Below are positions 3,313 through 35,340 of a DNA stretch of 64,000 nt, one piece after another. A model generated the notes under the pieces. That model searched no databases, was not told the origin of the DNA, and was given only the letters and a program-made list of their open reading frames with translations. The translations under genes were made by a program, and so were the position numbers. Origin of the DNA: an uncultured Verrucomicrobiota bacterium (lineage in GTDB: Bacteria > Verrucomicrobiota > Verrucomicrobiia > Limisphaerales > SXQI01); contig CAYZKY010000007.1 of NCBI GenBank assembly GCA_964478815.1, positions 14,512 through 78,511 of the forward strand. Direction: 5' to 3'. The stretch's first letter is position 1; every line of letters starts with the position of its first letter.

Positions 3313-3342
3313 CTCTCAACCTTTAGCCGGAAAACCTGACCT

Positions 3343-13381: not shown

Positions 13382-14350
13382 ATGGGGGAGAATCCCGCGA
13401 AAACTCATTCGGATGACACCTCCCCATCCCTGGACGACCTTCTCGCCGAAGCCCAGGCCGCGGCGAAAGCTTCTATCCCCCCGAACACGGCCAGAGCCTA
13501 CCGGACGGACTGGAAGGATTTTCAAGCATTCTGCGCACGGCAAAAGCTTTCGGTATTGCCCGCGCGCCCGGAAACAGTTTGTGCTTATCTGGCCGCTCGC
13601 GCGCGGCGACACAAAGTGTCAACCATCCGCCGCCGGCTCACGGTCATCGGCAAGGTGCATCGGATTCGTGGCGTCCAGAATCCTCTGGATGACATGCGGG
13701 TCAAACAGACCTGGCGCGGCATCCTCCGGCAACACCGCACGGTCGAGGCCCAAAAATCTCCTGCTCTTCTTCGTGACCTTCAAGCAATTTCCGGTGCCTT
13801 GGATAAGAGCCTCGCCGGGATTCGCGACCGCGCCATCATTCTTCTGGGCTTTGCCGGCGCGATGCGCCGTTCGGAGTTGGTCGCCCTCGATGTCAGCAGC
13901 ATGGAACAAGCGGAAGAAGGCTTGGTGGTCTACATCGCTCGCAGCAAAACCGATCAGTCGGGTGCGGGACGCAAAATCGGAGTTCCTTTTGGACAAAATC
14001 CCCTCACCTGCCCTGTGCGAGCCGTTCTCGAATGGCTGAAGGTTTCGCAGATTTCCGGGGAAGCCCTCTTTCGCAAGGTCAATCGTCATGGGCGTCTCGA
14101 AGGGAAGCGGCTTTCGGCTCATGCCGTAGCCCTTATCGTCAAACGGGTCTTCCAACTCATCGGCAAGGCCCCGGCCTCATTCTCAGGTCATTCCCTCCGG
14201 GCGGGCCTGGCCACCCAAGCCGCCATGTCGGGTGCGAGCGAACGTGCGATTCAAAACCAGACGGGCCACCGGAGCCTTACCGTCCTTCGCAAATACATCC
14301 GAGACGGAAGCCTTTTCCGGGACAACGCCGCGAAAAAGACGGGCCTATGA
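13382..14350 (+). CDS. tyrosine site-specific recombinase (phage-integrase family)
   Basis: 322 aa. N-terminal SAM-like region (TARAYRTDWKDFQAFC), then ..AMRRSELVAL..HSLRAGLATQAA..GHRSLTVLRKYIRDG, i.e. the R..H-x-x-R..Y catalytic pattern. Confidence 0.9.
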   Translation: MGENPAKTHSDDTSPSLDDLLAEAQAAAKASIPPNTARAYRTDWKDFQAFCARQKLSVLPARPETVCAYLAARARRHKVSTIRRRLTVIGKVHRIRGVQNPLDDMRVKQTWRGILRQHRTVEAQKSPALLRDLQAISGALDKSLAGIRDRAIILLGFAGAMRRSELVALDVSSMEQAEEGLVVYIARSKTDQSGAGRKIGVPFGQNPLTCPVRAVLEWLKVSQISGEALFRKVNRHGRLEGKRLSAHAVALIVKRVFQLIGKAPASFSGHSLRAGLATQAAMSGASERAIQNQTGHRSLTVLRKYIRDGSLFRDNAAKKTGL

Positions 14351-14388
14351 AGCTTGGTTGCCCCGTATCGATGGGGCACTGTTGCCAG

Positions 14389-14405
14389 ATCAGATGGCAT
14401 CTGAT
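14389..14405. promoter_or_regulatory. possible operator palindrome upstream of the Phd/VapC pair
   Basis: ATCAGAT-GGC-ATCTGAT perfect 7-3-7 palindrome followed by ATATTAT, 12 nt before the antitoxin ATG. Confidence 0.3.
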
Positions 14406-14416
14406 ATTATGAACTC

Positions 14417-14692
14417 ATGAAGACACTCAACGTTACCGAAGTCGCGCGCAATTTCCGCCGGGTCATTGATGACATCGAGCGAGAGCAGGAAGAGATTGTG
14501 CTGGTGCGCAATCACCGCCAGGTGGCCCGCCTCGTGCCGGAACCACCCGGTCAAACAGCGGATCAGGTGCTCGGCGATTTGTATCGCAAGTTGGACGACG
14601 CCACGGCCGACGCGTTGCTTGAGTCGCTCGCCAAGACCCGCCGGGCCAAGGGCGGGACCCTCGCAAACCTGCGCAACCCATGGGATATCTGA
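14417..14692 (+). CDS. Phd/YefM-like antitoxin
   Basis: MKTLNVTEVARNFRRVIDDIEREQEEIVLVRNHRQVARLVP. Overlaps the VapC start by 13 nt. Confidence 0.75.
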   Translation: MKTLNVTEVARNFRRVIDDIEREQEEIVLVRNHRQVARLVPEPPGQTADQVLGDLYRKLDDATADALLESLAKTRRAKGGTLANLRNPWDI

Positions 14693-15102
14693 TCGACACC
14701 AATATCTGGGTCGCTATTGAAAGGGGTGTGCTGAGCGCCGCCGACATCCATGCGATCACCCGGCAGGAGCCCGTCTATGTCTCCCCCATCAATCTCGCTG
14801 AACTGCGCTACGGCATTGAACTCATGACCGACGTCAAGTTGCGGCAGCGGGCCGAAGCCATGCTCCGGCGCATGCGGCGCAAGCCCCTCCTGCGCATTAC
14901 CGGAGAAACCGCCGAAGTTTTCGGGGGTCTCGCGGGCCAATTGACTCGGACGGGACGCGGGCCACAATTTCGCACTCAAGATTTATGGCTGGCCGCTCAG
15001 GCGATCCAACGGGACTACACTCTTTTAACGGCCAATCCCAAAGACTTTCGCGACGTCCCTGGATTGCGCTTGGTGGAAATCAGCCTCCCTCGAAAGGATT
15101 GA
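14680..15102 (+). CDS. vapC: PIN-domain toxin VapC
   Basis: MGYLIDTNIWV..INLAELRYG..TQDLWLAAQAI..LLTANPKDF. Confidence 0.85.
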   Translation: MGYLIDTNIWVAIERGVLSAADIHAITRQEPVYVSPINLAELRYGIELMTDVKLRQRAEAMLRRMRRKPLLRITGETAEVFGGLAGQLTRTGRGPQFRTQDLWLAAQAIQRDYTLLTANPKDFRDVPGLRLVEISLPRKD

Positions 15103-15289
15103 TTCGGTTTCCAAAAATGAAGCGACGAGTGTTGGGCCGACGATGGGGCAACGCCATCAATCCCGGCGAACCAAGTCAACCCGATGCTAAAAGCTTCCGC
15201 GAACCTCCTTCCAGTACCGAAAGCTGTCGGGAAACCTCGCGGAATTTGGCGGTGCTTCCAAGAATCGGGTGTTCCATTACCCGCCCTGA

Positions 15290-15883
15290 TCAGAGGGGCA
15301 AGTCGAGCTGAGCGCTCGGCGGAGGCGTGGCACGTTCTGCCGCGAGCCTTTCGAACATCTCCCGCTGCGTAGTCGGAAGGTCCGTTTCGCTCAATTCGAA
15401 CCGGATCGCCTCAGCCTCATTCGGAGTCGTTCCGCCCGCTTGAAACTCCTGGAGCATTTGGGCATACGGCTTGTTCGAGGCAAACAATCCCCCGTCCGCG
15501 TACATAACCTTCAGGTGCCAGCGCCATTCCTCGACAGTCAAATCTGTGCCGACGAACGCCACCGCCGATCCGAGGCGATACGGCTTTCCAGCCAGTGTCA
15601 CTCGTTCTCCCTCACTATGACGCGGTCCCGGGATACGCGCCGGTTCTGGACCGGCGTAGGCTGCGGCCGGGATCAGCGGATGACAGAGAGCCGAACGCCC
15701 CACCCGGCCTCCAAAACTGGTGTAGAACTGTCCCTGATGCTGGAAGGCTCGGACTTTCGGGAACGATTGTGCCGAATACGCGGCGGCGATATCCCCTCGC
15801 TCCATCCGCCACAGGCCCATCGCCAGGCGGCGCCAGTTCACCGTGATTTGCCGTAAACTGCTTTCTGCCCGCTCCGTCTCCAT
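15290..15883 (-). CDS. hypothetical protein (family A, copy 1)
   Basis: ATG at 15883 preceded by GGAGG. METERAESSLRQITVNWRRL..FQHQGQFYTSFGG. A paralog lies at 26874-27467. Confidence 0.6.
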   Translation of the reverse strand: METERAESSLRQITVNWRRLAMGLWRMERGDIAAAYSAQSFPKVRAFQHQGQFYTSFGGRVGRSALCHPLIPAAAYAGPEPARIPGPRHSEGERVTLAGKPYRLGSAVAFVGTDLTVEEWRWHLKVMYADGGLFASNKPYAQMLQEFQAGGTTPNEAEAIRFELSETDLPTTQREMFERLAAERATPPPSAQLDLPL

Positions 15884-15942
15884 GAATGCCTGCCTCCCAT
15901 TAAGTGGTATAGGACAAGAGGGCGGCGACATCAATGGGCTGA

Positions 15943-16536
15943 TTATAACGGGGTGGCATCGACCTCCCTTTTCGCGTTGTTCCGGCAGTGCTGGATGATT
16001 TGGGAGAGCGGCCATTCCCAGGTGTATTCCAGGAAGGGACGTTCGCTGAAAGCCGCCCAGAGCTGTTCGAAGAGTCCTCCCACCTCACTTACGCCGAGGT
16101 CCGCCGTGTCGAACCCCGCCTCGAACTCCTCCTGCGCGTCCATCAACTTCGCTTCGCCGTAAGCGCAGGCGGCGTCGCGCAAAGCGTTTAGTTCGTCCCG
16201 CCGCTCCCGGAGTGGGCGCAGACCCGAGCGTCGATGCGAACGCTTGATTTCTGCTGCGGCCTCATCGAGCCGGTGGAGTGCTTGGCCGATCTCATGACCG
16301 ATTTCCTCCGCTGTCACCCAGCACGCCTCCCAGAAAGCGGCCAAGTCGCGAGGCGTTGTCTCCGGTTTGAACTGAAAGGTGCTTAAGCCCTTCGCCTCGA
16401 ACCGTGCGATTACCCAGGCCAGATCGATTCGAGAGGACTCGGACGGCCCGGGTTTCCCCGAAAACAACTCCATCTGTTCGAATGAGGGCAAGGAACTTTC
16501 GATGATCGCTCCACAAGATTGTCGTCCCATCTCCAT
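15943..16536 (-). CDS. hypothetical protein (family B, copy 1)
   Basis: 197-aa ORF (..IDLAWVIARFEAKGL..YTWEWPLSQIIQHC). A paralog lies at 27979-28608. Confidence 0.6.
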   Translation of the reverse strand: MEMGRQSCGAIIESSLPSFEQMELFSGKPGPSESSRIDLAWVIARFEAKGLSTFQFKPETTPRDLAAFWEACWVTAEEIGHEIGQALHRLDEAAAEIKRSHRRSGLRPLRERRDELNALRDAACAYGEAKLMDAQEEFEAGFDTADLGVSEVGGLFEQLWAAFSERPFLEYTWEWPLSQIIQHCRNNAKREVDATPL

Positions 16537-17527: not shown

Positions 17528-18349
17528 GTGCCCACCAACCCATCGTTTTCGCCGTCGGAGTTAGAGAGTGTCTGCAAGGTCGTTGCGGACACGGCGAACG
17601 GCATTACAGGCTCTGAAATCGGGCAAGTGCTTGCCCAATTGGGCATTCCCGATCCAGCACCGGAGTTAACAAAGTGGAAGCGATTGCTCGCAGCGTTGGA
17701 CCAACAACAAAGGCGCGATAATTGCGCCAACAACGTGTTGAACCTGATTCTTCAAGTCATGAGGCCCGTGCGTTACGTGGGTAAGAATGACGTATTTGAG
17801 TCACGTCGTATCGCGCTGAACCATGTCTTGATTTTTACCGGCTTGCAAGTCGGAATCGATGGTCAACTGCGTCGGCGTGAAGCCGCCAGCACATTAGCTC
17901 AAGCAGACGAGCGCGCCGGCCGGCTGCGCGCCGAGCTGCTGAAGCGAAATGTTCATGCAGATGTGCTTCGCTTCTGCAAAGCAGAATTACTCCAGGATAA
18001 CTATTTTCATGCTGTTCTCGAGGCAACAAAGAGCCTGGCTGAGAAAATGCGAGTTCGTACCGGCCTTGGAACTGACGGATCAGAATTGGCCGACGAAGTG
18101 CTGGCTTTGGGGAAGATAGGAACGCCCTTTCTCGCTTTCAATAGTTTGAGAACCGATTCCGAACGGATGGAGCAAAAAGGGTTGCTCAACTTAATCAAGG
18201 GACTTTTCGGGACGTTTCGAAATCCGACCGCTCATTCCCCAAGAATCTCTTGGAATATGACGGAGCAAGACGCCCTCGATCTTCTGACAATGGCATCGTT
18301 TCTTCACCGGCGTTTGGACAGCGCCGCTAGGACGCCACGGACCGCGTAA
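17528..18349 (+). CDS. TIGR02391 (Hypoth_Ymh)-type HEPN-domain protein
   Basis: 273 aa with a GTG start. C-terminal half reads YFHAVLEATKSLAEKMR..LLNLIKGLFGTFRNPTAHSPRISW, carrying the HEPN Rx4H motif (RNPTAH). Visibly lower GC. Confidence 0.7.
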   Translation: MPTNPSFSPSELESVCKVVADTANGITGSEIGQVLAQLGIPDPAPELTKWKRLLAALDQQQRRDNCANNVLNLILQVMRPVRYVGKNDVFESRRIALNHVLIFTGLQVGIDGQLRRREAASTLAQADERAGRLRAELLKRNVHADVLRFCKAELLQDNYFHAVLEATKSLAEKMRVRTGLGTDGSELADEVLALGKIGTPFLAFNSLRTDSERMEQKGLLNLIKGLFGTFRNPTAHSPRISWNMTEQDALDLLTMASFLHRRLDSAARTPRTA

Positions 18350-18596
18350 GCGTTGGGATGGTCGACAGCTTTGCGTCCAAATAATGCAGGATCGTTCGGG
18401 CGCTGTTAATGGCAAGCATCGCCTCTGGTTCCTCCAGGAGCGTTTCGATTGGGTGTGATACGCTGCCTCGATTGCGCAGTGGATTGAGTGCATCGAGGAC
18501 GCTGGCTATCCCCCGAATCGCTCTGAAAACGTGGTCGGCATGTGGAAAAGCGGAACTAAGAACGGGATGTTGGTCGCCCGGAATGTATGACTGCAC
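18327..18596 (-). pseudogene. Abi_C-like (HEPN) abortive-infection gene, C-terminal fragment
   Basis: ..VFRAIRGIASVLDALNPLRNRGSVSHPIETLLEEPEAMLAINSARTILHYL has an Rx4-6H motif. There is no N-terminal part. Its 5-prime end abuts the integrase remnant. Confidence 0.5.
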
Positions 18597-19412
18597 CTAT
18601 TCTCGGGGAGCCCAGCTTCTTTGGCCCTCCGCTTCACCGCGCGAAGTTCGTCGTTCCTCGACATGGCGTTGGGAGTCAGAGTGTCAGTTTTGCCGATAGC
18701 GGAGCGAAAGAGCGGAGTCTTTCTTCTCCTCGGCAATGCCGACGGGCTCAATGTAGGCACCAACGTACGCCACTGCGTTATGGTGCGCGGGCACTTCGTG
18801 AAACTTTCCGTCCTTCTCGTGCATCCGGAACCACCAGCGTTTGCTGTTTTGGTCATAGTCGCTGACGCGCATCCCGACCACGGTCGAGACGCGGACGAAG
18901 CTGAACACCATAGCGGCGATGAGCGCTCGGTCTCGAAGACCGACAACCGTTGAGGTGTCGATACGATCGAGGAGCTTCCGGGCATCGTCGGGGGACAGCA
19001 CCGGCGTTTTTCCTTATTCGAAAGCATGCTTCGGCTCTCGGACAGAAGCGGCCGGGTTCATCGGCATGACTTGGCCGATGACCAACCAATGGAAAAGCAT
19101 CCGAATGGCGGCGAGGTGTTGCTTCACAGACGGCGCGGCGAGCTCACGACCGAGCTCCTCGACGTAGCTCGCAACAAGAAACGGCTGGAGCTGTTGCCGC
19201 GAGATCCGTTTCTCGTCGCACCAATCGCAAAACCTGGAGACAGCGGCCGCGTACGCGGATCGGGTGTTCCGGTTTCGGATATTGGCAGTGAAAAACTCAA
19301 CGAACCGCCTGGCAGCGTTTTCGCCGGCGTCGGCGATGACTGCTGGGAACGGCCGGCCGGCGAAGGTGACTTCGCGCGATCCGTTCTTTTCACTGACGGC
19401 TGCATTTGTCAT
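18597..19412 (-). pseudogene. tyrosine integrase remnant (stop, frameshift, 3-prime truncated)
   Basis: Three frames: AARRFVEFFTANIRNRNTRSAYAAAVSRFCDWC..PKHAFE-stop; LSPDDARKLLDRIDTSTVVGLRDRALIAAMVFSF..WWFRMHEKDGKFHEVPAHHN; LFRSAIGKTDTLTPNAMSRNDELRAVKRRAKEAGLPENRCSHTFRAT, then homology is lost. Confidence 0.8.
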
Positions 19413-19520: not shown

Positions 19521-20420
19521 TCATGCTGCGCTTGGTTCAGCGCTGACTATCCGAACTCGCGACCGGATGCGTTCACCCTTCGGCAGGATGAAAACGAACG
19601 CGTTAAATGTGTTGTTGAAAAAGTGGTACTCAAACTCGGTCAAGCTGCCGTCTATTGTCAGCAACAGGATTTTGCCCTTTTCATGGAACCGGCGGTTAAA
19701 CTTTAAGTCAGAAACAAACGGCAGTGGCAAGGTGCAGAAGTCGGGCCACGAAATATCCCCAAACTCAGCGGTGAAGCTGTCCGACTGGAAATAATTGCGG
19801 AAGCGGGCTCCGAACTGCCCGTTTTGCTGGGGTGGATGAAGGACGAGTACAGCGCATCGCTTAGCCGAGCGCTGCACATACCGGCGAATCGCGGCATGAG
19901 CCGAACCGCCAAATTTCTGAGCCAACGCCTGGGGCGATTTTATCGTCAATGGCAGTTTTGCGGCTTCATCGTCGAAGTGGTGGAGCTGAAACAGCAGCGA
20001 TGACGCCCCATAATTCGCCTCGCGTTCGAAAATTTCTTTCACGTCCGGGTTAAGCGACTGCTCATCGTCCATTGCCGCCAAGAGATCTCGTTGCCAAGGA
20101 GAAACGCCGTGGATCGTTTCGTGCAAAGTTATGAAATTATTCCGGCTCTCCTTTTGGGAGTGATCAAGATAGATGACTTTCTGGCGAATATCGCAAATGC
20201 CCAGGAACTTCTTCATCGTCCTGGAAAATCCGCTGCCGAAACGCTCAAGGAATGATGGTTCGATTCGGCTGAGATCAACGCCTCGGTCAATGGACAGTTC
20301 GGCTTCCGCGACAATCCGATCCACAGGAGTCGGAAAGACGCCCAACGCCTTTGCTCCTTTGAGGAGGTTGTAGGCGATGGTGTCTAGCGCTTTAGCAGTT
20401 TCCGGAGCGTCCGAGTTCAT
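19521..20420 (-). CDS. ImmA/IrrE-family zinc metallopeptidase (CapP-like)
   Basis: 299 aa with HExxH in ITLHETIHGVSPW. Starts 4 nt after the upstream XRE gene. Confidence 0.8.
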   Translation of the reverse strand: MNSDAPETAKALDTIAYNLLKGAKALGVFPTPVDRIVAEAELSIDRGVDLSRIEPSFLERFGSGFSRTMKKFLGICDIRQKVIYLDHSQKESRNNFITLHETIHGVSPWQRDLLAAMDDEQSLNPDVKEIFEREANYGASSLLFQLHHFDDEAAKLPLTIKSPQALAQKFGGSAHAAIRRYVQRSAKRCAVLVLHPPQQNGQFGARFRNYFQSDSFTAEFGDISWPDFCTLPLPFVSDLKFNRRFHEKGKILLLTIDGSLTEFEYHFFNNTFNAFVFILPKGERIRSRVRIVSAEPSAA

Positions 20421-20423
20421 GTA

Positions 20424-20792
20424 TCATTTGCGTTGGGATCGAAGAAACGCCACATACTTCGCAACTTGCTCTTCCTCTTCCGCAGACAGTGATTCAAGTC
20501 CACGCAGAGCAGCGCCAGCCAGTGTTTTCGGCCCATCTTTCAGCTTTCGCTGCACGTATCCAGCGGCCTCCATCAACAGCTCGTAATCGACACAGTAGAT
20601 GGTGGCGAGCTTATGCAGAAAATGCGGCGATGGTTTCTTGACCTTATCGTTTTCAAGCTGGCTCAAATAGGCGTTCGAAATACCCGTGACGTCCTCGACC
20701 TCACGCAGCGACAGCCTTCGCATCTCCCGGGCCGTCTTGAGCCCTTCCCCGAGAGACGATGGTTTCACTTCGGTGTTTTTGTTTTGGGGCAT
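20424..20792 (-). CDS. XRE-family HTH transcriptional regulator (CapH-like)
   Basis: LSLREVEDVTGISNAYLSQLENDKVKKPSPHFLHKLATIY. Divergent from the Ubl operon. Confidence 0.85.
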   Translation of the reverse strand: MPQNKNTEVKPSSLGEGLKTAREMRRLSLREVEDVTGISNAYLSQLENDKVKKPSPHFLHKLATIYCVDYELLMEAAGYVQRKLKDGPKTLAGAALRGLESLSAEEEEQVAKYVAFLRSQRK

Positions 20793-20875
20793 GTGATCAG
20801 GCTACTTCAGCCCGCGTCATAAATCAAGCAGAATCCATTAAAACACGCAAGCGAATACATATGCTTGATGGATGC

Positions 20876-20904
20876 TTGACGGAGTGAGCAGCGCGTGATA
20901 TCGT
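20876..20904 (+). promoter_or_regulatory. sigma70-like promoter for the Ubl/E2/JAB/E1 operon
   Basis: TTGACG - 17 nt - TATCGT, about 45 nt upstream of ATG 20950. Adjacent TGCTTGA repeats and an AATCAAGCA/TGCTTGAT inverted repeat lie in an AT-richer intergenic region. Confidence 0.45.
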
Positions 20905-20949
20905 AATCTTATTAGGCCGGAATAGTTCCGGGCCACGGAGAATAAAAAT

Positions 20950-21636
20950 ATGAAAGAGACCGAAAACCGGAATCGCCCAAACCCCAAATGGTTCGGACTT
21001 GTTAACGACACCGTAATCCCTGCCCCTCAACGGAAAGTTCCGGCGTCCTTGTTGAGGACCCAAGCCGGCGTGCCCGGCGATCACGCCTTGTTGCGCGATC
21101 ATAACTCACCTCGGGATGTGGTTATTGACCCTCACACCGAGATCGACTTGGGGCTGGGGAATGTCTTCTACAGCCGTCCCATTCAGTGTGAACGGCAAGA
21201 CGGTGCATGTGATACTCCGGCAAAACTGGCCTGGGCCGTCAATGACCGGCCAGAGGTCACCGTCAGGCCCGATCAAACTGGCCGATCAATCCGGGAGCTA
21301 TTTGGGCTGGCTGATGGAACGGTTCTGTTCCGTGACTTTGAAGGCCCGATGGATCTGGAGGTCACTGATGGCGATGCGGTCATCTTCAACGATGGGCCGG
21401 TTTTCGTCACCCGCAAGGTTCAGCAGTTCTGCTTGAACATCGAAGACAAGCTCTATTCCTGGCCCAAACCGAAAATCAGCACGAGCGAGATCCGACAGCT
21501 CGGCCACCTGCCGGCGGATCAATCCGTCGTGTGGGAAGACGGTGAAGGTCATGAACGCACCCTTCGCGAGGACGAAGTGATTGAACTTGCAACCTGCTGC
21601 CGCGTCGGGCGGGCTCCGAAATACAAACGAGGATGA
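20950..21636 (+). CDS. bilA: multi-ubiquitin (three beta-grasp repeats) Ubl protein, BilA-like
   Basis: 228 aa with three ~65-aa repeats (FGLVNDTVIPAP.., LAWAVNDRPEVTV.., FCLNIEDKLYSWP..). Ends ..APKYKRG-stop. GGAG RBS present. The stop overlaps the next ATG. Confidence 0.75.
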   Translation: MKETENRNRPNPKWFGLVNDTVIPAPQRKVPASLLRTQAGVPGDHALLRDHNSPRDVVIDPHTEIDLGLGNVFYSRPIQCERQDGACDTPAKLAWAVNDRPEVTVRPDQTGRSIRELFGLADGTVLFRDFEGPMDLEVTDGDAVIFNDGPVFVTRKVQQFCLNIEDKLYSWPKPKISTSEIRQLGHLPADQSVVWEDGEGHERTLREDEVIELATCCRVGRAPKYKRG

Positions 21637-22043
21637 AAGCACGCATTAAAGAGGACCTTGATTTGCTGCGGGGGCGGTTTCCCGCGCTCGAACACGGGCC
21701 AAACTTCGAGTGGGTCCGGATTCCGGCGTTTCCCTTCCCAAAAGGCCGGTTCAACAAGGCGAGCGGTCCTATCCTGTTTGTGTTGCCAGTTGGCTACCCG
21801 CAGACCGGCCCGGACAACTTCTTTACTGATGTTGATCTCCGCCTGACGGACGGCTCATTGCCGCCAGGCTTCAACGCTGGTCCGCAATCAAGCAGTGGAC
21901 CAGCGCCGGTACCGGGAAACTGGGGTTGGTTCTCTTGGCACCCTAACAAGTGGACCGTGGCGGCCGAGATTGCGGCCGGAGACAACCTGCTGGTGTTCGT
22001 AACCGGAATCCAATTGTGTTTGCGTGGGGAGGAATCGACATGA
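21633..22043 (+). CDS. bilB: prokaryotic E2/UBC-like protein, BilB-like
   Basis: 136 aa with ..VGYPQTGPDNFF..FSWHPNKW... ATGA overlaps at both ends. Sits between the Ubl and JAB genes. Confidence 0.65.
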   Translation: MKARIKEDLDLLRGRFPALEHGPNFEWVRIPAFPFPKGRFNKASGPILFVLPVGYPQTGPDNFFTDVDLRLTDGSLPPGFNAGPQSSSGPAPVPGNWGWFSWHPNKWTVAAEIAAGDNLLVFVTGIQLCLRGEEST

Positions 22044-22585
22044 GCCATGAGATTTTAATCCCCGCCGGCATCCTGAATCGCGTTCAGCGCCACCTTTTCC
22101 AGAGTCATCTTGAGCAGGCGGCTTTTCTGTTCGCCACGACGGAGACCGAATACGGGGCCGTCCGTTTTCATGTGGAGGACTCCTACCTGGTTCCCGCCAG
22201 CGGATGGGACGTGCAGATGGACGTTTATTTGGAGATGACGGACGAAGAGCGGGCCAAAATCTTGAAAATGGCACGGGACCGTAATGCGGCGATCATCGAT
22301 TGCCATTCTCACCCGCACAGCCAGGAAGACGTTTGGTTTTCTCCAAGCGACCTGGCCGGCATCAATCAGTTTGCACAATACACCAAATGGAAATTAAAGG
22401 GCCGCCCGTTCGCGGCACTGGTGTTTGGAGAGACCTCCATTGATGGCGTGGTATGGCAGGGCGAATTCGCCGGTGCGGAACCGCTGGGGGCTTTGGCTGT
22501 CGTAGGACAGGCCCGGCTAATACCAACCGGTTCTTGGTTCCGGCCTCGACCAGTTCGACTAAACAGATTTCAACCTTATGACTAG
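22040..22585 (+). CDS. bilC: JAB/MPN (JAMM) metalloisopeptidase, BilC-like
   Basis: From Met 22040. LEQAAFLF (Glu) and HSHPHSQEDVWFSPSD (HxHx7Sx2D JAMM motif). Confidence 0.85.
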   Translation: MSHEILIPAGILNRVQRHLFQSHLEQAAFLFATTETEYGAVRFHVEDSYLVPASGWDVQMDVYLEMTDEERAKILKMARDRNAAIIDCHSHPHSQEDVWFSPSDLAGINQFAQYTKWKLKGRPFAALVFGETSIDGVVWQGEFAGAEPLGALAVVGQARLIPTGSWFRPRPVRLNRFQPYD

Positions 22586-23477
22586 TGAACGTTTCAAAAG
22601 ACAAATCGCCGCTTTCGGCGACCTCGGCCAACAACGGCTCGCGGCGGAGCGCGTTGGAATCGTTGGCGGCGGCGGCTTGGGCTGCTTTGTCAGCCAATCT
22701 CTAGTTAACCTAGGCGTCGGCCGGCTGGTCGTCGTTGATCACGATACCCTCACCGAATCAAATCGAAACCGCTGGGTCCTGGGATTCTCGGCCGATATTG
22801 GCGCATACAAGGTTGATCTGATCCGGCGCTACATACTGGCCGTTGACCCTGCGGCAGATGTGATCGCAATCCGGGAGAACGTGAGAACTCGGGCTGCACT
22901 GATCGAGCTGATGAAATGCTCAACGATCTTCGGGTGCGTTGACAATGACGGGGCCAGACTGATTCTGACTGAGCTGTGTGCGGCTTACCAAATCACGTAT
23001 ATCGACTGCGCCAGCGAAATCATTCCACCAAAAGCCGACTCTCCCCTGGATTTTGGCGGGCGTGTGGTGGTCGCTCGGCCAGGTCAGTTTTGCTTGTTCT
23101 GCGCCGGCGAACTTGATTCCGAAGAGGCCAAAATGGCCCTGGAGGACTCAGCGGTTCAGGCTGCCCGCAACGCGCACGGCTACGGCCTCGGTTCCGAGGT
23201 CGAATCTCCCAGCGTCGTATCCTTGAACGGCGTAGTGGCCAACTTGGCCGTAACGGAATTCATGGTCATGGTGGCCCGGATGCGAGAGCCGGCCCTTAAG
23301 CTCACATTTCGAGGGATGCGAGGCGTTGTTGTGTCGAACAAAGCTGAACGCTCACCCAATTGCTACACCTGCGGTGTCCTGAACGGGATCCGCGATGAGG
23401 TCGATATTTTACGGTACGTTTTGCCAGAACGAAATAACGAATTCGTTACCGGCCAACTGGCCTTGGCTGCTTCCTAA
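22578..23477 (+). CDS. bilD: ThiF/E1-like adenylyltransferase, BilD-like
   Basis: RVGIVGGGGLGCFV, VVVDHDTLTESNRNR, DNDGARL, CxxC (SPNCYTCG). Confidence 0.85.
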   Translation: MTSERFKRQIAAFGDLGQQRLAAERVGIVGGGGLGCFVSQSLVNLGVGRLVVVDHDTLTESNRNRWVLGFSADIGAYKVDLIRRYILAVDPAADVIAIRENVRTRAALIELMKCSTIFGCVDNDGARLILTELCAAYQITYIDCASEIIPPKADSPLDFGGRVVVARPGQFCLFCAGELDSEEAKMALEDSAVQAARNAHGYGLGSEVESPSVVSLNGVVANLAVTEFMVMVARMREPALKLTFRGMRGVVVSNKAERSPNCYTCGVLNGIRDEVDILRYVLPERNNEFVTGQLALAAS

Positions 23478-23539: not shown

Positions 23540-24036
23540 TCCCCGTTTGATAACCTTATCGCGTCGCCCATCTCGCCATCGTCTTCACCTTTCCTGAGAC
23601 GATAGTGAGATGGGCGAAGGGAGAAGTAGGGCTGGTTTCGCTTCCAGAAGAAAGGCGGGAAATCTCATGAAGTGCCCGCGCATCACGACGCGGAAATTTT
23701 CCTCGATGCCTCCCTCACTGCCGATGGGAATCACCAGGAGAACAAGCACCTCTCTTTCGCACCGCGCCCGGAAAATCTGGCACCCTCTCGGAACGGCGGC
23801 TTAACCGAAACGAGACTCTCGCCATGATCAAGCGACGCGCGAATGTTGCGGGATTACCGGGAAACACCTGCAATCACACCTTCCGCGCTCCAGGCATCAC
23901 CCCATTTCTTCTAAACGGCGGCACGGTCGAGAAAGCCCAAACCGTCGCCGGGCATGAATCGCCGAAAAGCACCTAGCTTTATGACCGCCGGAGCGATGAG
24001 ATCACTTTGGATGAAATCGAGTGGATTCTCAACTGA
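23540..24036 (+). pseudogene. second tyrosine integrase remnant (same family as 18597-19412, inverted)
   Basis: Shifted frames read ..IVFTFPETIV.., WFRFQKKGGKSHEVPAHHD. An in-frame piece at 23824-24036 reads MIKRRANVAGLPGNTCNHTFRAPGITPFLLNGGTVEKAQTVAGHESPKST-TAG(23974)-LYDRRSDEITLDEIEW. Confidence 0.75.
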
Positions 24037-25224: not shown

Positions 25225-25395
25225 AACGGTTCCCGCGCCATGCGCACCGAAGGGAGGATGGAAGCCGCCATGTCTGGCGCGAGCGAACGCTCGATCCAGA
25301 ACCAGACCGGTCACCGGAGCCTCGCCGTCTTGCGCCTCTATATCCGCGATGGAAGCCTATTCCGCGAGACCGCCGCCAAGAATGCCGGCCTGTAA
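25225..25395 (+). pseudogene. integrase 3-prime remnant (homologous to the end of 13382-14350)
   Basis: ..SRAMRTEGRMEAAMSGASERSIQNQTGHRSLAVLRLYIRDGSLFRETAAKNAGL-stop, compared with ..AGLATQAAMSGASERAIQNQTGHRSLTVLRKYIRDGSLFRDNAAKKTGL-stop. Confidence 0.8.
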
Positions 25396-25468
25396 TATTC
25401 CCGGTCGCGATCCGAACCGCGCCATTCCCGGGGCGACCTCTTGCCAAGGCAGGCCTGATGTGCGATAA

Positions 25469-25487
25469 TCTGACCATACTAGTCAGA
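25469..25487. promoter_or_regulatory. possible operator palindrome flanked by GATAAT boxes upstream of the Phd/VapC pair
   Basis: GATAA-TCTGAC-CATACTA-GTCAGA-TAAT, 16 nt before ATG 25503. Confidence 0.3.
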
Positions 25488-25502
25488 TAATGAGGATGCT
25501 TC

Positions 25503-25808
25503 ATGTCCAAGACACCTGTTTCCGATGAACCGAAACAAGTGCCACTGCTTGGTGGATTCCCCAGCTGGAAGCTGGAGGAGGCCAAGGCGCGCTTCAGTGA
25601 ACTGGTCAAGTCCGCCCGGGGCGGCCCGCAGCGGGTCACCGTGCATGGGCGCGATGCCGTCATGGTGGTCGATGCCGAGATGTTTGCCGCCCTGCTGCCT
25701 TCCAGCCAGCAGCCGAGCCTGCACCAGCTCCTTTCCGACTCTCCCCTGGCCCGGCTCAAATTCGGGAGCAAACCGGTCCGGGCTCCGGTAAGGGACGTTG
25801 AACTATGA
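25503..25808 (+). CDS. Phd/YefM-family antitoxin
   Basis: ..SWKLEEAKARFSELVKSARGGPQRVTVHGRDAVMVVDAEMF. 4-nt overlap with the toxin start. Confidence 0.8.
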   Translation: MSKTPVSDEPKQVPLLGGFPSWKLEEAKARFSELVKSARGGPQRVTVHGRDAVMVVDAEMFAALLPSSQQPSLHQLLSDSPLARLKFGSKPVRAPVRDVEL

Positions 25809-26248
25809 GCGGCTGGGTGCTCGACACCAATGTGCTGTCCGAGCTGCGGAAAGGGAGCCGGTCCCACGCCGCTGTTACGGCCTGGGCAGAGGATCAGGCT
25901 GTGTATCAGCTTTTCGTCAGCCGCGTCACGCTCGGCGAGATCCAGTATGGCATTGAGCAAACGCCCAATCCCGCCTTTCGCCTGGAACTGGAGCAATGGG
26001 TGCAGGCGCGCCTTCTCCCCTGGTTTTCCGGGCGGATTCTGGAGGTCGACCAGCCGGTCATCGTGGAGTGGCGTCGGATGGTTGAAAAGGGGCGAAAACG
26101 AAACCACACCTTCAGCCAGCCCGACCTGTTTATTGCCGCGACAGCAAAGGTGCATGGTCTGGGTGTAGCCACGCGCAACGTGGAGGATTTTGCACTCGCG
26201 GGCGTCGCCGTCACCAACCTTTGGAAATATCGCTCGCTTCGATCGTAG
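25805..26248 (+). CDS. vapC: PIN-domain toxin VapC (FitB-like)
   Basis: WVLDTNVLSELRKG..VTLGEIQYGIE..QPDLFIAATAKVHGLGVATRNVEDF. Confidence 0.85.
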   Translation: MSGWVLDTNVLSELRKGSRSHAAVTAWAEDQAVYQLFVSRVTLGEIQYGIEQTPNPAFRLELEQWVQARLLPWFSGRILEVDQPVIVEWRRMVEKGRKRNHTFSQPDLFIAATAKVHGLGVATRNVEDFALAGVAVTNLWKYRSLRS

Positions 26249-26374
26249 GAATATGGGAACCAGGCTTCCTCCTCTCTTGTCCGCTTGGAGCTTAACAGGG
26301 TCGAGCTGCGTGCCGGGCAAGGCTCCGCGTCGCTTTCCGGTCGCTCCCTGGCCACTCAGGAGGACTCTACCGTC

Positions 26375-26488
26375 GCGAGCGAACGTTCGATTCGGACCGG
26401 GCTTCGGGGTCTCCCTGTCCTTCGCCGGCAGATTCGCGATGGCGGCCTCTTAAAGAATAGCGCGGCGAAAAAACCCGCCTCTGGCCTC
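26375..26488 (+). pseudogene. second, more degraded integrase 3-prime remnant
   Basis: ASERSIRTGLRGLPVLRRQIRDGGLLKNSAAKKPASGL, compared with ASERAIQNQTGHRSLTVLRKYIRDGSLFRDNAAKKTGL. Confidence 0.5.
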
Positions 26489-26873
26489 GGCTCACATGTG
26501 TAAGATATTCCGTGCGCATTGCCGGCAGATGGCAGCTGATATGATCGAACCAGGCCCTCAATTTCGCATTCATGACCTGCGGCTGGCTGCTCAGGTCATC
26601 CAGCGCGGCTTCGGCTTTCTCACCGCGAATGCCTAGGATTTTCGTGATGTTCCCGGAGTGCGTTTGGCGGAATTCAGCGGACGGGGAAAGGATTGATCGG
26701 TTCGCTGGTCTGGACGCTCTCAAAGCCCCTGCCATGTGAATTCGACATGGAGTGCATGGTTGGAGGGGACCGTCTCGGTCAGGTGGCTCCATTTTGGATG
26801 TTGCCAATCTCTCCCGGGCATTTTGCGCCACGGTTGAAAGCTCGACGGCAGGGGTGATCGGTTCGCCATCCGT

Positions 26874-27467
26874 TCAGATAAGCAAGTCGAGCTGGACGCG
26901 GGACGGAAGCGCGCTGCGTTTCGCCGCCAGACTCTCGAACATCTCCTCTTGCGTGGTGGGAAGATCCGATTCCCGCAACTCAAGCGCGATGGCCTCAGCC
27001 TCATTCGGACTCGCTCCGCCCGCTTGAAACTCCTGGAGCATCTGCGCATACGGCTTATTGGCGGCAAACAATCCTCCATCCGCGTACATCACCTTCAGCC
27101 GCCAGCGCCATTCCGCGATGGTCAGGTCCGTGCCGATAAACTCCACGGGCGGTCCGAGGCGATACGGTTTTCCAGCGAGCGTCACCCGTTCTCCCTCTCG
27201 ATAGTGCGACCCCGGGATCCGTGCCGGTTCCGGACCCGAGTACGCCACCGCTGGGATCAGTGGACAACACAGGGCCGAATGCCCTGTGCGGCCTCCAAAA
27301 CTGGCGTAGAACTGTCCCTGGTGTTGGAAAGCTCGCACTTTGGGGAAAGATTGTGCCGATTAAGCGGCGTCGATATCCCCTTGCTCAGTCCGCCAAATGG
27401 CCATTTCCAGGCGACGCCAATTCACCGTGATTTGCCGCAAATTGCTTTCGGTCCGTTCCCGCTCCAC
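26874..27467 (-). pseudogene. family A paralog (copy 2) with in-frame TAA
   Basis: Colinear with 15290-15883. GTG replaces ATG after the same GGAGG. TAT->TAA at 27360-27362. ..FQHQGQFYASFGG..KVMYADGGLFAANKPYAQMLQEFQAGG. Confidence 0.7.
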
Positions 27468-27978
27468 GAATGCCTGCCTCCTCTAACAGGGTATAGAACA
27501 ATAGGGCGGCAAGATCAATGATCTCACCTGGGGTGTCTCTGGACAAAGCCCTTGATCATGTGGGGAGCCAGAGTTCGCCCCAATGACGGCTCTGTCGGAC
27601 TTCGGCTAGAGCACCGAGTGGTGTCACCGCGCTTTACTTGTTGATCCACGCGCAGCCCTGGCTGCTTCTCCTCGATTTCGCACCGATCTCCGGCACGACA
27701 CGATGCTCTGGGCGAGCCGGAACTATGGTGTAGTTCAGCACTTCGTTCCATCTGAATTAGTGCTGTGATTGCCCCTGGAGCTTTCGCCTCGGCCGGGTCC
27801 GAGGCAATTCTATCGCGCTCGCTTGGAATGAACCGGCGTCGCTCTTTCTCTCTTGCCTTCAACTGGTCGGTCCTGCTTGCCGTAGCGCGGGTAATCGACC
27901 GTGATCCGATCTTCCAGCGCCACCTGTCCGAGGTGATTTGTCAAAGTTCTGTTCCGTGCAATTCAATGGTGCCGGCTC

Positions 27979-28608
27979 TTACCGTTCGATAAGGGGGGAT
28001 CCGTCATTCGAAACCAGTTCGCTTCGGCAATGCGCGACAATTCGCGAGAGCGGCCAGTTCCAGGTGTATTCGATGGCGGAACGGTCGCTGTAAGCCGACC
28101 ACAACAGTTCAAAGAACTGGCTGGTTTGCGCCGTCGTCAGGCCGGTCGTGTCCAGCCGCGCTTCCAGTTCTTCTTGCGCTCCCATGAGTTGCGCCTCAGC
28201 GTAAGCGCGGGCCACCGCGGACAACGCAAGGAGTTCCTCGCGCCGTTGCCGAAGCGCGCGCATCCGCAGTCGGTCGCGATCTTTCCGGGCCTGCTGCATT
28301 TGTCCTTCCAACCCGTCATCCTCGGCTCCGAGAACCCGAGCGATGGTTTAGGCCGTTTCCCAACAGTTTTCCCAGAAAGAGGCCTGGTGCGCCGGGGTCG
28401 TGTCGTCCGTAAAGCGGAACGAGCGGAGATTCTTGGCGGCAAACTGAGCGTCCACCCAGGCCAGATCGAAGCAGGCAAATTCGGCGATTGGCTTTTCTGG
28501 GAGGAACAATTCCAACTGCGTAAATTCCTGACCGCTCTGGTTGGAAGGCGGGGGTCCGATGAGCGGGCATGCCCGCCGCGCGTTCGTTCTGGCTCCATTG
28601 TCCCTCAC
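27979..28608 (-). pseudogene. family B paralog (copy 2) with in-frame TAA
   Basis: Colinear with 15943-16536 (..FDLAWVDAQFAAKNL..YTWNWPLSRIVAHC). Stop at 28348-28350 splits it into two ORFs. Confidence 0.7.
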
Positions 28609-28893: not shown

Positions 28894-29126
28894 GTCGAAG
28901 CGGCCCGGCAGCGAGAGCGCGCCAGGGTCGGGAGGTGACGACTCGGTTAACGGTGAGCAACTCCCGGCAGCCTCTGGGACTGTCTCCTGACTATGTCGAA
29001 AGACCTGACTTTGTCGCATCGAATCCTCCCGTCAGCGGTCTACCACAAACCAAGCCGGCGGACCAGACCTTCGGCGAGAGGGTGTCCTCTGTACCAAAGA
29101 TCGTCCCTTGCGCGAAGATTTACGGT

Positions 29127-30725
29127 CTTGTACGTGAAACTCGGACTATTTTCTCTCAAGGCTATTTCGTGTCGTATTCCATCTGGCTTCTCGTTCTGGC
29201 GGCAGCACTAGCGGTTCTCGCCACCTTCTACCGTCGTCGGCGGAAACCGAACGTGGCCAGCACCCATCGGCGCGGCCGTTCTCTGCGGTCCGAACTGGAA
29301 GTCGCCGATTCTCTGAAACGCCATCGAGCCGTTTCCGACCCGGGTCTCGCGTTGGGACGGCAACGCCTCCCCTCCTCCGCGGCCTATTCTCACGTCGCGT
29401 TGGCCGGAGCCACCGGCTCGGGCAAAACCATCCTGCAACGGCTCCTCATGCAATCCGTTCTGCCCTCGATTGGACAGGGGTTCGGGCACCGGGCACTCAT
29501 CTACGACGCCAAGCAAGACCTCCTTTCCCTTCTGGCGGGCCTGCGGCTCCGTGCGCCCATTCGAACCTTGAACCCACTGGATGCCCGCTCCGTCGGTTGG
29601 AATCTCGCGGCGGACATTCGGACGCCCGCGTCGGCGTTTCAGATGGCTTCGACCCTCATTCCAGATGTCAAAACCGATAACAACCCGTTCTTCTCCAATG
29701 CGGCACGTCACTTGATGGCAGGAGCCATCAATGCCCTGCTCCTCCACGCCAAGGGGCGCTGGACCTTTCGCCAGCTTCTGCTCATGATGCGGGACCCGGA
29801 CATATTACGGCCGCTCCTCGACCGCTCCGAGCAAACGCGGTTTCTACTCCAATACTTCGAGCATCCCGGCACTTTTCAAAACATCCTCTCGACCGTCCTG
29901 ACCGCCCTCGCCCCGTTCGAAGTTATTGCGGCCGCCTGGGATCGAGCCGGTGAGCAGATCAGCTTGGCCGCATGGCTGCGGGAAGAGTCCATCCTCGTCC
30001 TCGGCAACGACGAATCGAATCGGGCAGCGCTCGAAGCCATGAACCGGCTCATCTTCCGCCGCATCGGCGAACTGGTTCTGTCCCAGCCAGAACTGCCTGA
30101 ACCGAGTGCCCGGTCGCCTCGCACCTGGTTTTTTCTCGATGAAGTTCGGGAAGCGGGCAAGCTCGACAACCTCTCGCGCCTCCTGACCCAGGGGCGAAGC
30201 AAAGGGGCTGCCGTCGTGCTCGGTTTTCAGGATATGGCGGGTCTCCAGGCCGTCTACGGCAAAGAGGTGGCCAACGAATTAGTCGGACAATGCGCCACCA
30301 CCGTCATTTTGCGGCTAAACTCCCCGGACACCGCCGCTTGGGCGTCGCGCCTCATTGGTTCTCACGACCTCCTGGAGAGTCGCCATAGCCATTCCCGGAG
30401 CTATCCCTCTATCCTCCATGCCTTGCCGGGAACAGGGGCTTCGGTTTCTCATGGCGTCGCCACCCGGCCCTTGGTGCTGGAATCGGAGATCATGGATTTG
30501 CCGCTGACCTCGTTCGAGACGGGCCTCACCGCCTATGTCATCTCCCCCTGGACGGGAGTATATCGAGAGCATCTCCCTGGCGCATGGCTGAGGAGCCAAT
30601 TGCGATCCCCGGATCGCCACGTCGCAAACTTATCCCCACGCCCGGTCTCTCACCAGTACCTGCGGCCATGGAGTGCCGAGGACGACTATCTCCTGATGGA
30701 CACTCCGATGGCGGTGGCGGGATGA
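29127..30725 (+). CDS. type IV coupling protein (TraG/VirD4/TraD family)
   Basis: TM helix IWLLVLAAALAVLATF, Walker A LAGATGSGKT, Walker B-like WFFLDEVREAG, LGFQDMAGL. The start is uncertain: the ORF opens at 28935, but TTG 29127 or GTG 29169 avoid overlap with the divergent gene. Confidence 0.8.
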   Translation, partial: LVRETRTIFSQGYFVSYSIWLLVLAAALAVLATFYRRRRKPNVASTHRRGRSLRSELEVADSLKRHRAVSDPGLALGRQRLPSSAAYSHVALAGATGSGKTILQRLLMQSVLPSIGQGFGHRALIYDAKQDLLSLLAGLRLRAPIRTLNPLDARSVGWNLAADIRTPASAFQMASTLIPDVKTDNNPFFSNAARHLMAGAINALLLHAKGRWTFRQLLLMMRDPDILRPLLDRSEQTRFLLQYFEHPGTFQNILSTVLTALAPFEVIAAAWDRAGEQISLAAWLREESILVLGNDESNRAALEAMNRLIFRRIGELVLSQPELPEPSARSPRTWFFLDEVREAGKLDNLSRLLTQGRSKGAAVVLGFQDMAGLQAVYGKEVANELVGQCATTVILRLNSPDTAAWASRLIGSHDLLESRHSHSRSYPSILHALPGTGASVSHGVATRPLVLESEIMDLPLTSFETGLTAYVISPWTGVYREHLPGAWLRSQLRSPDRHVANLSPRPVSHQYLRPWSAEDDYLLMDTPMAVAG

Positions 30726-30867
30726 CCTGGCATCGGATCTCCCCGGCCGCCCCGTTCCCGGAGACGCATCGGGTAAATTCGAAATTCCACTCTGCTATAG
30801 GAGGTCCACACCCCACGCATTTGAACCTGCCAAACCGCGTTCAAGTATTGGCGGAGTCCGGTTTCCA

Positions 30868-33276: not shown

Positions 33277-33576
33277 GCTCGGCGAGGACGGCGGCGAACC
33301 CCTTTCCCGCCGTGGCGCTGGCCGTTTGTTGCCGGCTTGCTTCGTTCACTCTTCCGTTTGGAGGAGCGGGGACCGCGATTCCGCCGCTTTGGAGCCTAAA
33401 TTCCGCGAGATTGCAGAATTGCTCAGTTTCGCCTCGGTTGCGTTTTGGGAAATAGCCGCACCCTGGGTAGCCACCGGGCTAAATTGGCGGCGTGGCGGAC
33501 CCTGGAACGCTCTTAAACGGGTCGCCCATGTCGGAGAGTGTTGCACTCGAGCCGGAACGACCCGCTTGAGTGGCGT

Positions 33577-33707: not shown

Positions 33708-33786
33708 TGGGTGATTCCCTGAAATGAAGGTCTCTTGCGCGAATTAAGGCATTCTTGTATGACCGATACTGGAGGCTTGGGAAACA

Positions 33787-35300: not shown

Positions 35301-35340
35301 CAACCTCGGGTGGCGGTTCTTTTTTCAGAAGGAAAAGGCC

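Follow-up and report, generated by a model that had tools for sequence, protein, structure and literature searches.

The closest described relatives of the locus reported here are the bacterial ubiquitin-like conjugation systems Bil and Bub. The locus is a cassette of six genes at positions 19521-23477 of a 64,000-nucleotide stretch (hereafter the window) of contig CAYZKY010000007.1, from an uncultured Verrucomicrobiota bacterium of the Limisphaerales. In Bil systems, the activating enzyme (E1) is multidomain, with an IAD-AAD-CYS organization of tandem adenylation domains plus a catalytic-Cys domain (PMC11601596), and the conjugating enzyme (E2) carries a catalytic Cys and an adjacent His, Type II Bil being the CEHH or '6C' family (PMC10557695, PMC11601596). 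The 6e operon of Iyer, Burroughs and Aravind (2006) comprises a polymeric ubiquitin-like protein (polyUbl), an E2/RWD-like protein, a JAB-E1 fusion and a metal-binding protein 'Y' (PMC1779556, Table 1). The '6E' or DUF6527 operons, with Multi_ubiq proteins and E2-like proteins lacking a catalytic Cys, have been characterized as Bub (PMC11601596). Bub conjugation proceeds through oxyesters on Tyr370 of E1 and Ser333 of E2 (with His335 and Asp299), and in Citrobacter Bub the changes Y370F and S333A/H335A abolish conjugation (PMC11601596). According to Ye et al., every Type I Bub operon has a BubAB fusion and every Bub operon encodes BubE (PMC11601596).

The cassette studied here very probably belongs to the Bub lineage, formerly called '6E'. 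Taken as a whole, it is probably a stress-inducible conjugation system of this lineage in a fully split four-gene form without BubE, carried by a conjugative plasmid or an integrative and conjugative element (ICE). By analogy with Citrobacter Bub, oxyester chemistry would also be rather likely, and the chances of an anti-phage role are about even. A preliminary description of this DNA had interpreted the locus as a Bil-type cassette; the functional class, a conjugation cassette, was confirmed and the assignment to Bil was not.

Gene content and catalytic residues

Four genes of the forward strand form the operon. The first one (20950-21636) encodes a ubiquitin-like protein (Ubl) with three beta-grasp units (Ubl3), 228 aa long and ending in KYKRG-stop. 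It is followed by a BubB-type (Prok-E2_E) E2 (21633-22043, 136 aa), a JAB/JAMM metallopeptidase (22040-22585, 181 aa, motif HSHPHSQEDVWFSPSD) and a single-domain ThiF/MoeB-like adenylating E1 (22578-23477, 299 aa, with GIVGGGGLGC and CYTCG). The junction sequences showed ATGA overlaps between Ubl and E2 (21633-21636) and between E2 and JAB (22040-22043), and an 8-nt overlap, ATGACTAG, between JAB and E1 (22578-22585). Gene calls on the identical contig and the alignment with 11 homologues place the JAB start at 22040, and not at that of a longer GTG open reading frame (ORF) from 21950. On the reverse strand, beyond a divergent regulatory region of 157 bp (20793-20949), are the genes encoding a CapH-like XRE-family helix-turn-helix (HTH) repressor (20424-20792, 122 aa) and a CapP-like IrrE/ImmA zinc metallopeptidase of the Peptidase_M78 family (19521-20420, 299 aa), whose HETIH motif occupies residues 100-104 (20109-20123). 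The ORF map and the junction sequences reproduced the six intact ORFs with all the overlaps and motifs reported previously. Hence, the feature is intact, real and correctly delimited, and the multi-Ubl, E2, JAB and E1 of a complete conjugation cassette are all present.

Regarding the profile searches that had been proposed as a check, Pfam recognized Multi_ubiq in the Ubl (1.3e-5), Prok-E2_E in the E2 (9.4e-10), ThiF in the E1, HTH_3 and HTH_31 in the repressor and Peptidase_M78 in the peptidase, all of them over the respective cut-offs; Prok-JAB stayed at 19.2 bits (1.1e-3), below its 25-bit cut-off. PADLOC (PADLOC-DB v2.0.0) identified capH and capP and gave Cap2-type E1 matches for the E1, and no PADLOC model matched the Ubl, the E2 or the JAB. 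In NCBIfam, the Ubl, the E2, the JAB and CapP were not assigned to any specific family, and the E1 gave only generic ThiF/MoeB matches under threshold.

The E1, previously described as ThiF-like, contains one ThiF domain in its 299 aa (3.9e-35), with GxGGxG at residues 30-35, two CxxC pairs (C172/C175 and C262/C265) and a crossover-loop Tyr202 (23181-23183) in the motif HGYG. A profile built from 28 E1 homologues had Citrobacter BubCD as its top match in the PDB (1.7e-30, profile positions 13-240), UBA1, MoeB, Uba4 and ThiF ranked below it, and no chain named Bil E1 appeared among the 60 matches listed. The C-terminal half also matched BubCD (E<=0.013), and only one other protein, lactate dehydrogenase, was found within E<=1 (E 0.47). 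In both E1 alignments Tyr202 falls on BubCD Y370, a correspondence which assumes a two-residue tag offset (a 458-residue chain against a numbering that ends at 456). Tyr202 is present in 120 of 120 E1 homologues (48-100% identical), and His200, Gly201 and Gly203 are likewise invariant. The two CxxC pairs are also invariant in these homologues, and we take them to be a tetracysteine zinc site of the MoeB/ThiF type. Since the pairs are of this type and any Cys in the crossover loop was found in just seven of the 120 homologues, CYTCG belongs to the structural zinc site and is not catalytic.

Concerning the E2, its predicted triad consists of Asp61 (21813-21815), Ser101 (21933-21935) and His103 (21939-21941), which are invariant in the close subfamily, as is the motif WGWFSWHP. 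When a profile from 22 E2 homologues was compared with the PDB at E<=10, only Citrobacter BubB was matched (3e-5). In this family profile D61 aligns with BubB D299, and D61-S101-H103 correspond to BubB D299-S333-H335. The AlphaFold2 (AF2) model of the E2 (predicted local distance difference test, pLDDT, 92) had BubB as its only significant fold match in Foldseek (9eae_C, E 1.7e-4, template modelling (TM) scores 0.65/0.68), and canonical UBC enzymes reached a TM of about 0.4. An exhaustive hidden Markov model (HMM) search gave 151 family representatives, with Ser at position 101 in 123 of them and Cys in 20, an alternation that is expected of a nucleophile site. Asp-Ser-His is the commonest combination (48 of the 151 representatives), and Asp-Cys-His was found in nine.

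Using the Ubl as the query, fused Ubl-E2 relatives of 359-377 aa were also found. The window Ubl and E2, joined in silico, align colinearly with them from end to end, the Ubl/E2 stop and start fall exactly on the GG|FE junction of the fused proteins, and the FSWHP motif of the E2 (S101-x-H103) aligns with their SYHP motif. In the window the E2 frame differs from the Ubl frame and a stop codon directly follows Gly228 of the Ubl. A Ubl-E2 fusion made by translational read-through was considered and ruled out, since the E2 lies in another frame.

The only cysteine of the E2 is Cys129 (22017-22019; motif CLRGEE), which is invariant in 22 of 22 close homologues and is not kept in the wider family, where fused Ubl-E2 relatives have A, S, T or C at this position. 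In the E2 model it stands at the end of the C-terminal helix 119-130, and S101 and H103 are in the loop after strand 97-100. The mutations of the E1 and E2 cysteines suggested in the preliminary description would therefore strike the zinc-site residues C172, C175, C262 and C265 or the subfamily-specific C129, and the likely catalytic residues are elsewhere. With regard to the features that define Type I Bub, the window has an E2 with the invariant Ser, His and Asp, and a single-domain E1 with an invariant loop Tyr and no catalytic Cys, for which a homodimeric form is predicted. Of the 6e components, it has a polyUbl and an E2-like protein, whereas its JAB and E1 are not fused and it lacks protein Y.

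The three beta-grasp repeats noticed in the first gene were borne out by Multi_ubiq and by the AF2 model (pLDDT 83), which shows beta-grasp units at 14-77, 93-156 and 160-212 and a floppy, disordered tail. The structures that this model matched best in Foldseek were multi-ubiquitin proteins from Citrobacter (Type I Bub; 9d5a, 1.4e-10), from E. coli ZDHYS365 (Type II Bub; 9cd2) and from M. brachiatum (Type II Bil). D66 and D129 of the Ubl are invariant and 63 residues apart, a spacing shared by D73/E136 of the E. coli Ubl3, from which no claim is made here on the Ca2+-binding acidic residues of filament-forming Ubl3 proteins. Triple beta-grasp Ubls, listed earlier among the aspects likely to be unstudied, are in fact 53% of Bub Ubls, and structures have been solved (PMC11601596, PMC11601603). 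In the homologous loci (L numbers below), most split-form Ubls have one beta-grasp domain (77-106 aa), and the triple form of about 230-250 aa is found in the window, L005, L009 and L019-L021.

The Ubl C-terminus reads GRAPKYKRG-stop, so that the mature Gly228 is encoded directly, and the tail GRAxKYKRG-stop was found in 12 of 12 homologous loci. As the Ubl ends in KYKRG-stop, processing by the JAB is unnecessary, and for this reason the JAB is probably a deconjugase. The claim of a full JAMM motif was upheld, with E25, H89-S-H91, S102 and D105 invariant in the 12 loci, and the sole sequence match of this protein in the PDB was the JAB domain of Citrobacter BubCD (E 0.076).

Regulation, distribution and genomic setting

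The 157-bp region contains a promoter-like TTGACG-17-TATCGT with a TG extension (20876-20904) and a GGAG resembling a ribosome-binding site (20937-20940), located 9 nt 5' of the Ubl ATG. The sequence ATGCTTGAYGG is present twice in tandem at 20861-20882, overlapping the -35 element, and it has an inverted partner, TCAAGCA, at 20824-20830 (31-42 bp upstream). The palindrome CCGGAATAGTTCCGG lies at 20917-20931, between the -10 element and the ribosome-binding site. Within the window, exact matches to the ATGCTTGAYGG repeat and to CCGGAATAGTTCCGG are confined to the 157-bp region. Promoter, repeats, palindrome and ribosome-binding site are all conserved in L020 and L021, the intergenic regions of which share 87% identity with that of the window. 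As no other loci carry the same regulator pair and these two are too similar, footprinting of the operator by phylogenetic comparison was uninformative.

The pair next to the operon had been described as a divergent CapH/CapP-like XRE and ImmA switch, and this held. The repressor matched HTH_31, HTH_3 and HTH_19 in Pfam, capH in PADLOC (1.3e-11), and DdrO and 7t5u in the PDB (4e-6 for the latter, which is labelled there just as a helix-turn-helix domain-containing protein). The peptidase matched Peptidase_M78 (2.7e-6) and capP in PADLOC (9.1e-14), and its best PDB relative was Deinococcus IrrE (3dte, 7.6e-5). The XRE HTH gene and the Peptidase_M78 (HExxH) gene are adjacent to each other, upstream of the operon and divergent from it, the same layout described in the methods of PMC10557695, and CapP-type switches respond to DNA damage (PMC10557695). 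The coupling to a regulator, also presented as unstudied, has already been published, given that CapH/CapP adjoin 31% of Bub operons and, in the case of Type II Bil, 15% (PMC11601596, PMC11601603).

Moreover, a CapP-like gene is located upstream of homologous cassettes in four lineages, three of which have it within a divergent three-gene module. The products of this module are about 200 aa, about 160-185 aa (with an HTH) and about 310 aa (CapP-like) in length, and the layout was seen at L005 2400-5201, L012 5392-7402 and L017 5307-7385 and also at L019 3056-5171. Unlike this module, the one upstream of the window operon has two genes, CapH (122 aa) and CapP (299 aa).

The split four-gene form was found in at least 12 independent loci, mostly from metagenome-assembled genomes (MAGs) of Verrucomicrobiota. 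The order Ubl-E2-JAB-E1 is present in every locus with sufficient DNA (L004-L006, L009-L015 and L017-L021) and in one JGI contig; in L016, where the DNA stops behind the E2 gene, just Ubl-E2 is visible. The homologous loci are assigned to Verrucomicrobiota/Limisphaerales (six), Actinomycetota, an unclassified bacterium and two archaeal MAGs. The archaeal cassettes, L014 5001-7218 and L016 7712-8402, are on contigs of Candidatus Aenigmatarchaeota and Candidatus Heimdallarchaeota MAGs (E2 53% and 46% identical, respectively), a finding explained either by transfer of the cassette to archaea or by erroneous binning. Stand-alone homologues of the E2 form 94 clusters of 117-141 aa, mostly of 136 aa, and this arrangement is seen in 125 of the 151 nearest family representatives.

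Since all Type I Bub operons are BubAB-fused and all Bub operons carry BubE, the split form falls outside the definitions of Ye et al. Furthermore, no description of a 'Type III Bub' or of a split form was found in the literature searched, the 2026 journal version of Ye et al. excepted. The new part is thus the split BubE-less architecture, the KYKRG tail and the wide spread in uncultivated lineages. A tentative proposal, with chances somewhat short of even, is that the split Ubl(KYKRG)-E2-JAB-E1 cassette without BubE could be a distinct third Bub type missed by published censuses, with the JAB as a deconjugase in the place of BubE and an E2 nucleophile that naturally switches between Ser and Cys; the split form would possibly be the ancestral, unfused state of the oxyester lineage.

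Some other arrangements were observed in the homologous loci. In a Blastocatellia MAG (L007/L008 6001-12227), there is a fused Ubl-E2 of 371 aa together with a ThiF-domain protein of 522 aa, the latter aligning with a JAB-like HSHP N-terminal part. Downstream of these two come an AAA ATPase and, in the place of DUF6527, a Peptidase_S8 of 769 aa, which makes this another undescribed 6E-type architecture. In two lineages that are unrelated to each other, the cassette is closely followed by an RtcR-like sigma54 activator (L005 8545-11908, L006 6858-10221 and L018 10591-12177), with a Ro60/TROVE-vWA gene beside it in L005 and L006. Such neighbours may point to a connection of the cassette with islands for RNA repair and stress. 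One homologous cassette adjoins genes for a type IV secretion system (T4SS) coupling protein (T4CP) and ParA.

With respect to the genomic setting, a conjugation and replication module at 28935-36774 encodes a T4SS coupling protein (TrwB_AAD_bind, 3e-62), a MobF/TrwC relaxase-helicase (3e-74) and a RepA-like initiator. Given that the relaxase is just 31-34% identical to that of any PLSDB plasmid, the module represents an uncharacterized plasmid or ICE lineage. The DNA of the cassette had no match among PLSDB plasmids, distant mode included. Split integrase remnants lie directly upstream of the cassette (18684-19412) and a C-terminal integrase fragment downstream (23824-23976). The two flanking remnants as halves of a single gene interrupted by the cassette were ruled out, as they are on opposite strands. 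In addition, a diverged direct duplication, containing an integrase 3' end and two hypothetical genes, brackets the cassette region (14206-16073 and 25251-28115, 72-81% identity, about 11-12 kb apart), which suggests tandem related integrative modules. The conjugation genes, the integrase remnants on both sides and the bracketing duplication agree with the earlier view of a plasmid-like element between dead integrases.

The mosaic mobile region of the window also includes an ISL3 transposase and an intact integrase (13382-14350), and several PIN/antitoxin pairs lie beside the cassette. Just upstream of the split integrase, at 17528-18596, the Pfam tags of the identical contig mark a 273-aa protein as Hypoth_Ymh and a small ORF that overlaps it as Abi_C-like, genes typical of abortive-infection and defence islands. 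The forward strand at 151-9222 encodes a 1053-aa ORF without a Pfam match, followed by an RHS-repeat protein of 1959 aa (3343-9222; RHS_repeat 2e-37, with a weak Peptidase_C39-like stretch), likely a polymorphic toxin locus. Finally, a 493-aa protein with an N-terminal TIR domain (TIR_2, 1e-24) and an NB-ARC STAND NTPase domain (4e-19), encoded on the reverse strand at 60025-61506 of the same contig, is a candidate NLR-like or Avs-like defence gene.

Proposed mechanism and alternative explanations

A mechanism can be proposed for the cassette as a stress-inducible Bub-lineage system. In unstressed cells, the CapH-like repressor would be bound to the repeats of the divergent region and the operon would be off. 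DNA damage or infection would activate the IrrE/CapP-like metallopeptidase, which would cleave the repressor and derepress the operon. The triple beta-grasp Ubl would be made with its reactive Gly228 already exposed, and the homodimeric single-domain E1 would adenylate this residue. The Ubl could then pass as an oxyester from Tyr202 of E1 to Ser101 of E2, helped by His103 and Asp61, and from there to lysines of target proteins. The stand-alone JAB, with no pre-protein to process, would remove or edit the conjugates.

Gene content, homology, predicted folds and conservation of the named residues are results of the present analysis; how the Ubl is transferred, how the operon is regulated, which proteins are targeted and whether there is a role against phage or stress are extrapolated from Citrobacter Bub biochemistry and from the work on CapH/CapP. 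Several points weigh against this interpretation. The identity to Citrobacter Bub proteins is low, just 19% in the structural alignment of E2 and BubB, and a single-sequence E2 search of the PDB gave nothing even at E<=1, the family profile being needed. The BubAB and BubCD fusions of Type I Bub are replaced by separate ORFs in different frames. According to precomputed Pfam annotation, BubE (DUF6527/PF20137) occurs neither on the identical contig L001 nor at any of the homologous loci, and no plausible window ORF of >=70 aa had a BubE-like CxCxC zinc motif, the window not having been scanned directly with the PF20137 HMM. The E1 keeps the tetracysteine zinc site, unlike Citrobacter BubCD, and the E2 of the subfamily carries the invariant Cys129. 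A promoter scan of the region gave two sites against 1.9 expected from shuffles, that is, no enrichment, and the credibility of the promoter match comes solely from where it lies and from its being conserved in L020 and L021. The ATGCTTGAYGG repeats and the CCGGAATAGTTCCGG palindrome have the status of candidate CapH operators only. Besides, Bub has not been shown to protect against phage, according to the group that defined it (PMC13373217).

Other explanations were also considered. A Bil-type (BilABCD) system, in which a Cys-thioester cascade from E1 to E2 tags phage structural (tail) proteins and blocks virion assembly, would have the four separate genes of the window in the same order (PMC10557695). 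A Ubl ending in Gly would suit it as well, and so would the presence of the Type II Bil Ubl3 structures 8u38 and 9d5b among the fold matches of the Ubl model and the CapH/CapP genes beside some Type II Bil operons (PMC10557695). All the findings here are also compatible with phage proteins being tagged as in Bil. However, where the Bil E1 is IAD-AAD-CYS with a catalytic Cys (PMC11601596), the window E1 has one adenylation domain of 299 aa and no conserved loop Cys, and where the Bil E2 has Cys and His (PMC10557695), the window E2 is a Prok-E2_E protein with Ser101 whose profile matches only BubB in the PDB, BubCD being the corresponding relative of the E1. Neither the Ubl, the E2 nor the JAB is matched by any PADLOC model. 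Such a system is thus very improbable at this locus, and Bil as a family assignment is largely refuted. The preliminary description had also stated that Multi_ubiq/Prok-E2_E operons were later studied under the name Bil, but it is as Bub that the '6E' operons were characterized, and Type II Bil is the CEHH/6C family (PMC10557695, PMC11601596). Quite improbable too is a hybrid chemistry in which Cys129 of the split-subfamily E2 serves as thioester nucleophile, either by itself or following Ser101, and which would set the subfamily apart from characterized Bub in its mechanism. The invariance of C129 in the close homologues and the Cys at position 101 in 20 of the 151 relatives, which indicates that the family tolerates thiol chemistry, are in line with it; nevertheless, C129 is lost in the wider family (A, S, T or C in the fused relatives), it is situated outside the S101/H103 loop in the model, and S101, H103 and D61 coincide with the residues of BubB that are experimentally required.

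It could also be argued that the E2-like protein is an inactive RWD-like module that binds the Ubl, as in the first 6e prediction, and that the system only adenylates or assembles the Ubl or performs a reaction of the sulfur-carrier type, since the E1 resembles MoeB, ThiF and Uba4 and retains the zinc site. This seems very unlikely. Conjugation by Citrobacter Bub, whose D-S-H triad is the same, has been demonstrated both in vitro and in cells (PMC11601596). Position 101, where Ser alternates with Cys, points to selection on a catalytic site, as do the WGWFSWHP motif and the E1 Tyr, both invariant, and the intact JAB and the strictly conserved KYKRG-stop tail suit a cycle of conjugation and deconjugation. 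A more serious alternative, although still an unlikely one, keeps the same biochemistry and gives it a non-immune role, either in a general response to DNA damage or stress or in plasmid establishment, with transient expression in a repressor-free recipient. The location on a conjugative element with T4CP, MobF relaxase and RepA, the homologue beside T4CP and ParA, and the DNA-damage responsiveness of CapP-type switches (PMC10557695) favour such a role. The surroundings resemble a defence island instead, with Abi_C/Hypoth_Ymh and PIN toxin-antitoxin pairs adjacent and the RHS and TIR-NB-ARC genes 10-40 kb away, and CapH/CapP are mostly found on immune operons.

Among the ubiquitin-like pathways known, Bub is the only one for which Tyr/Ser oxyesters have been proposed in place of Cys thioesters. 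In the split BubE-less form, each activity is in one small protein and the Ubl needs no processing, which makes it a simpler system for dissecting this chemistry, and it allows asking what the JAB does without a pre-protein and whether BubE is dispensable. The presence of Ser (123/151) or Cys (20/151) at the nucleophile position of the E2 is a natural experiment on the interconversion of thioesters and oxyesters. Moreover, a conjugative element with a switch of the DNA-damage type is a useful setting with regard to anti-phage versus stress or establishment roles. As for annotation, cassettes with Multi_ubiq and Prok-E2_E should not be labelled Bil, and it should be noted that PADLOC-DB v2.0.0 has no model matching three of the four proteins of this operon.

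Comparison with known systems

The Bil systems (BilABCD; Millman 2022, Hör 2024, Chambers 2024) resemble the window in their four separate genes in the order Ubl-E2-JAB-E1, in the C-terminal Gly of the Ubl and in having multi-beta-grasp Ubls, and some Type II Bil operons have a divergent CapH/CapP. They differ in the multidomain E1 with a catalytic Cys and in the Cys and His of the E2 (CEHH in Type II), and only for them has an anti-phage phenotype been shown.

Type II Bub (6E.2), represented by BubA/BubBD/BubE of E. coli ZDHYS365, shares with the window a Ubl (in many cases Ubl3) that is free-standing and has its terminus encoded directly, as well as the E2 and E1 lineages and the crossover-loop Tyr. 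In this type the E2 is fused to the E1 and has a Ser+Lys+His site, there is no JAB and BubE is always present. The window E2 and E1, on the contrary, are encoded separately, the E2 site is D-S-H, there is a JAB, and BubE was not found.

Concerning the regulators, CapH/CapP and DdrO/IrrE also consist of a small XRE HTH repressor and an HExxH M78/IrrE-like peptidase, divergently arranged and with the promoter region in common with the operon. The window pair has low identity to the characterized pairs, and its cleavage reaction, its activation by single-stranded DNA and its operators are predicted by analogy with them.

Type I Bub (6E.1) is known from BubAB/BubCD/BubE of Citrobacter sp. RHBSTW-00271 (Ye et al., PMC11601596). 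In the window, Ubl and E2 are separate with an ATGA overlap, whereas BubAB is a fusion that needs cleavage by the JAB; JAB and E1 are likewise separate, with the 8-nt overlap, in place of BubCD, and the DUF6527/BubE serine protease was not found. The window E2 has an additional insertion and the invariant Cys129, the Ubl has the KYKRG tail and the E1 keeps its tetracysteine zinc site. On the other hand, both have an Asp-Ser-His E2 of the Prok-E2_E family, a single-domain E1 with a loop Tyr and without a catalytic Cys, a JAB, a Ubl of about 229 aa with three beta-grasp units and a terminal Gly, and the order Ubl, E2, JAB, E1, and CapH/CapP are frequent beside Type I Bub as they are present beside this cassette.

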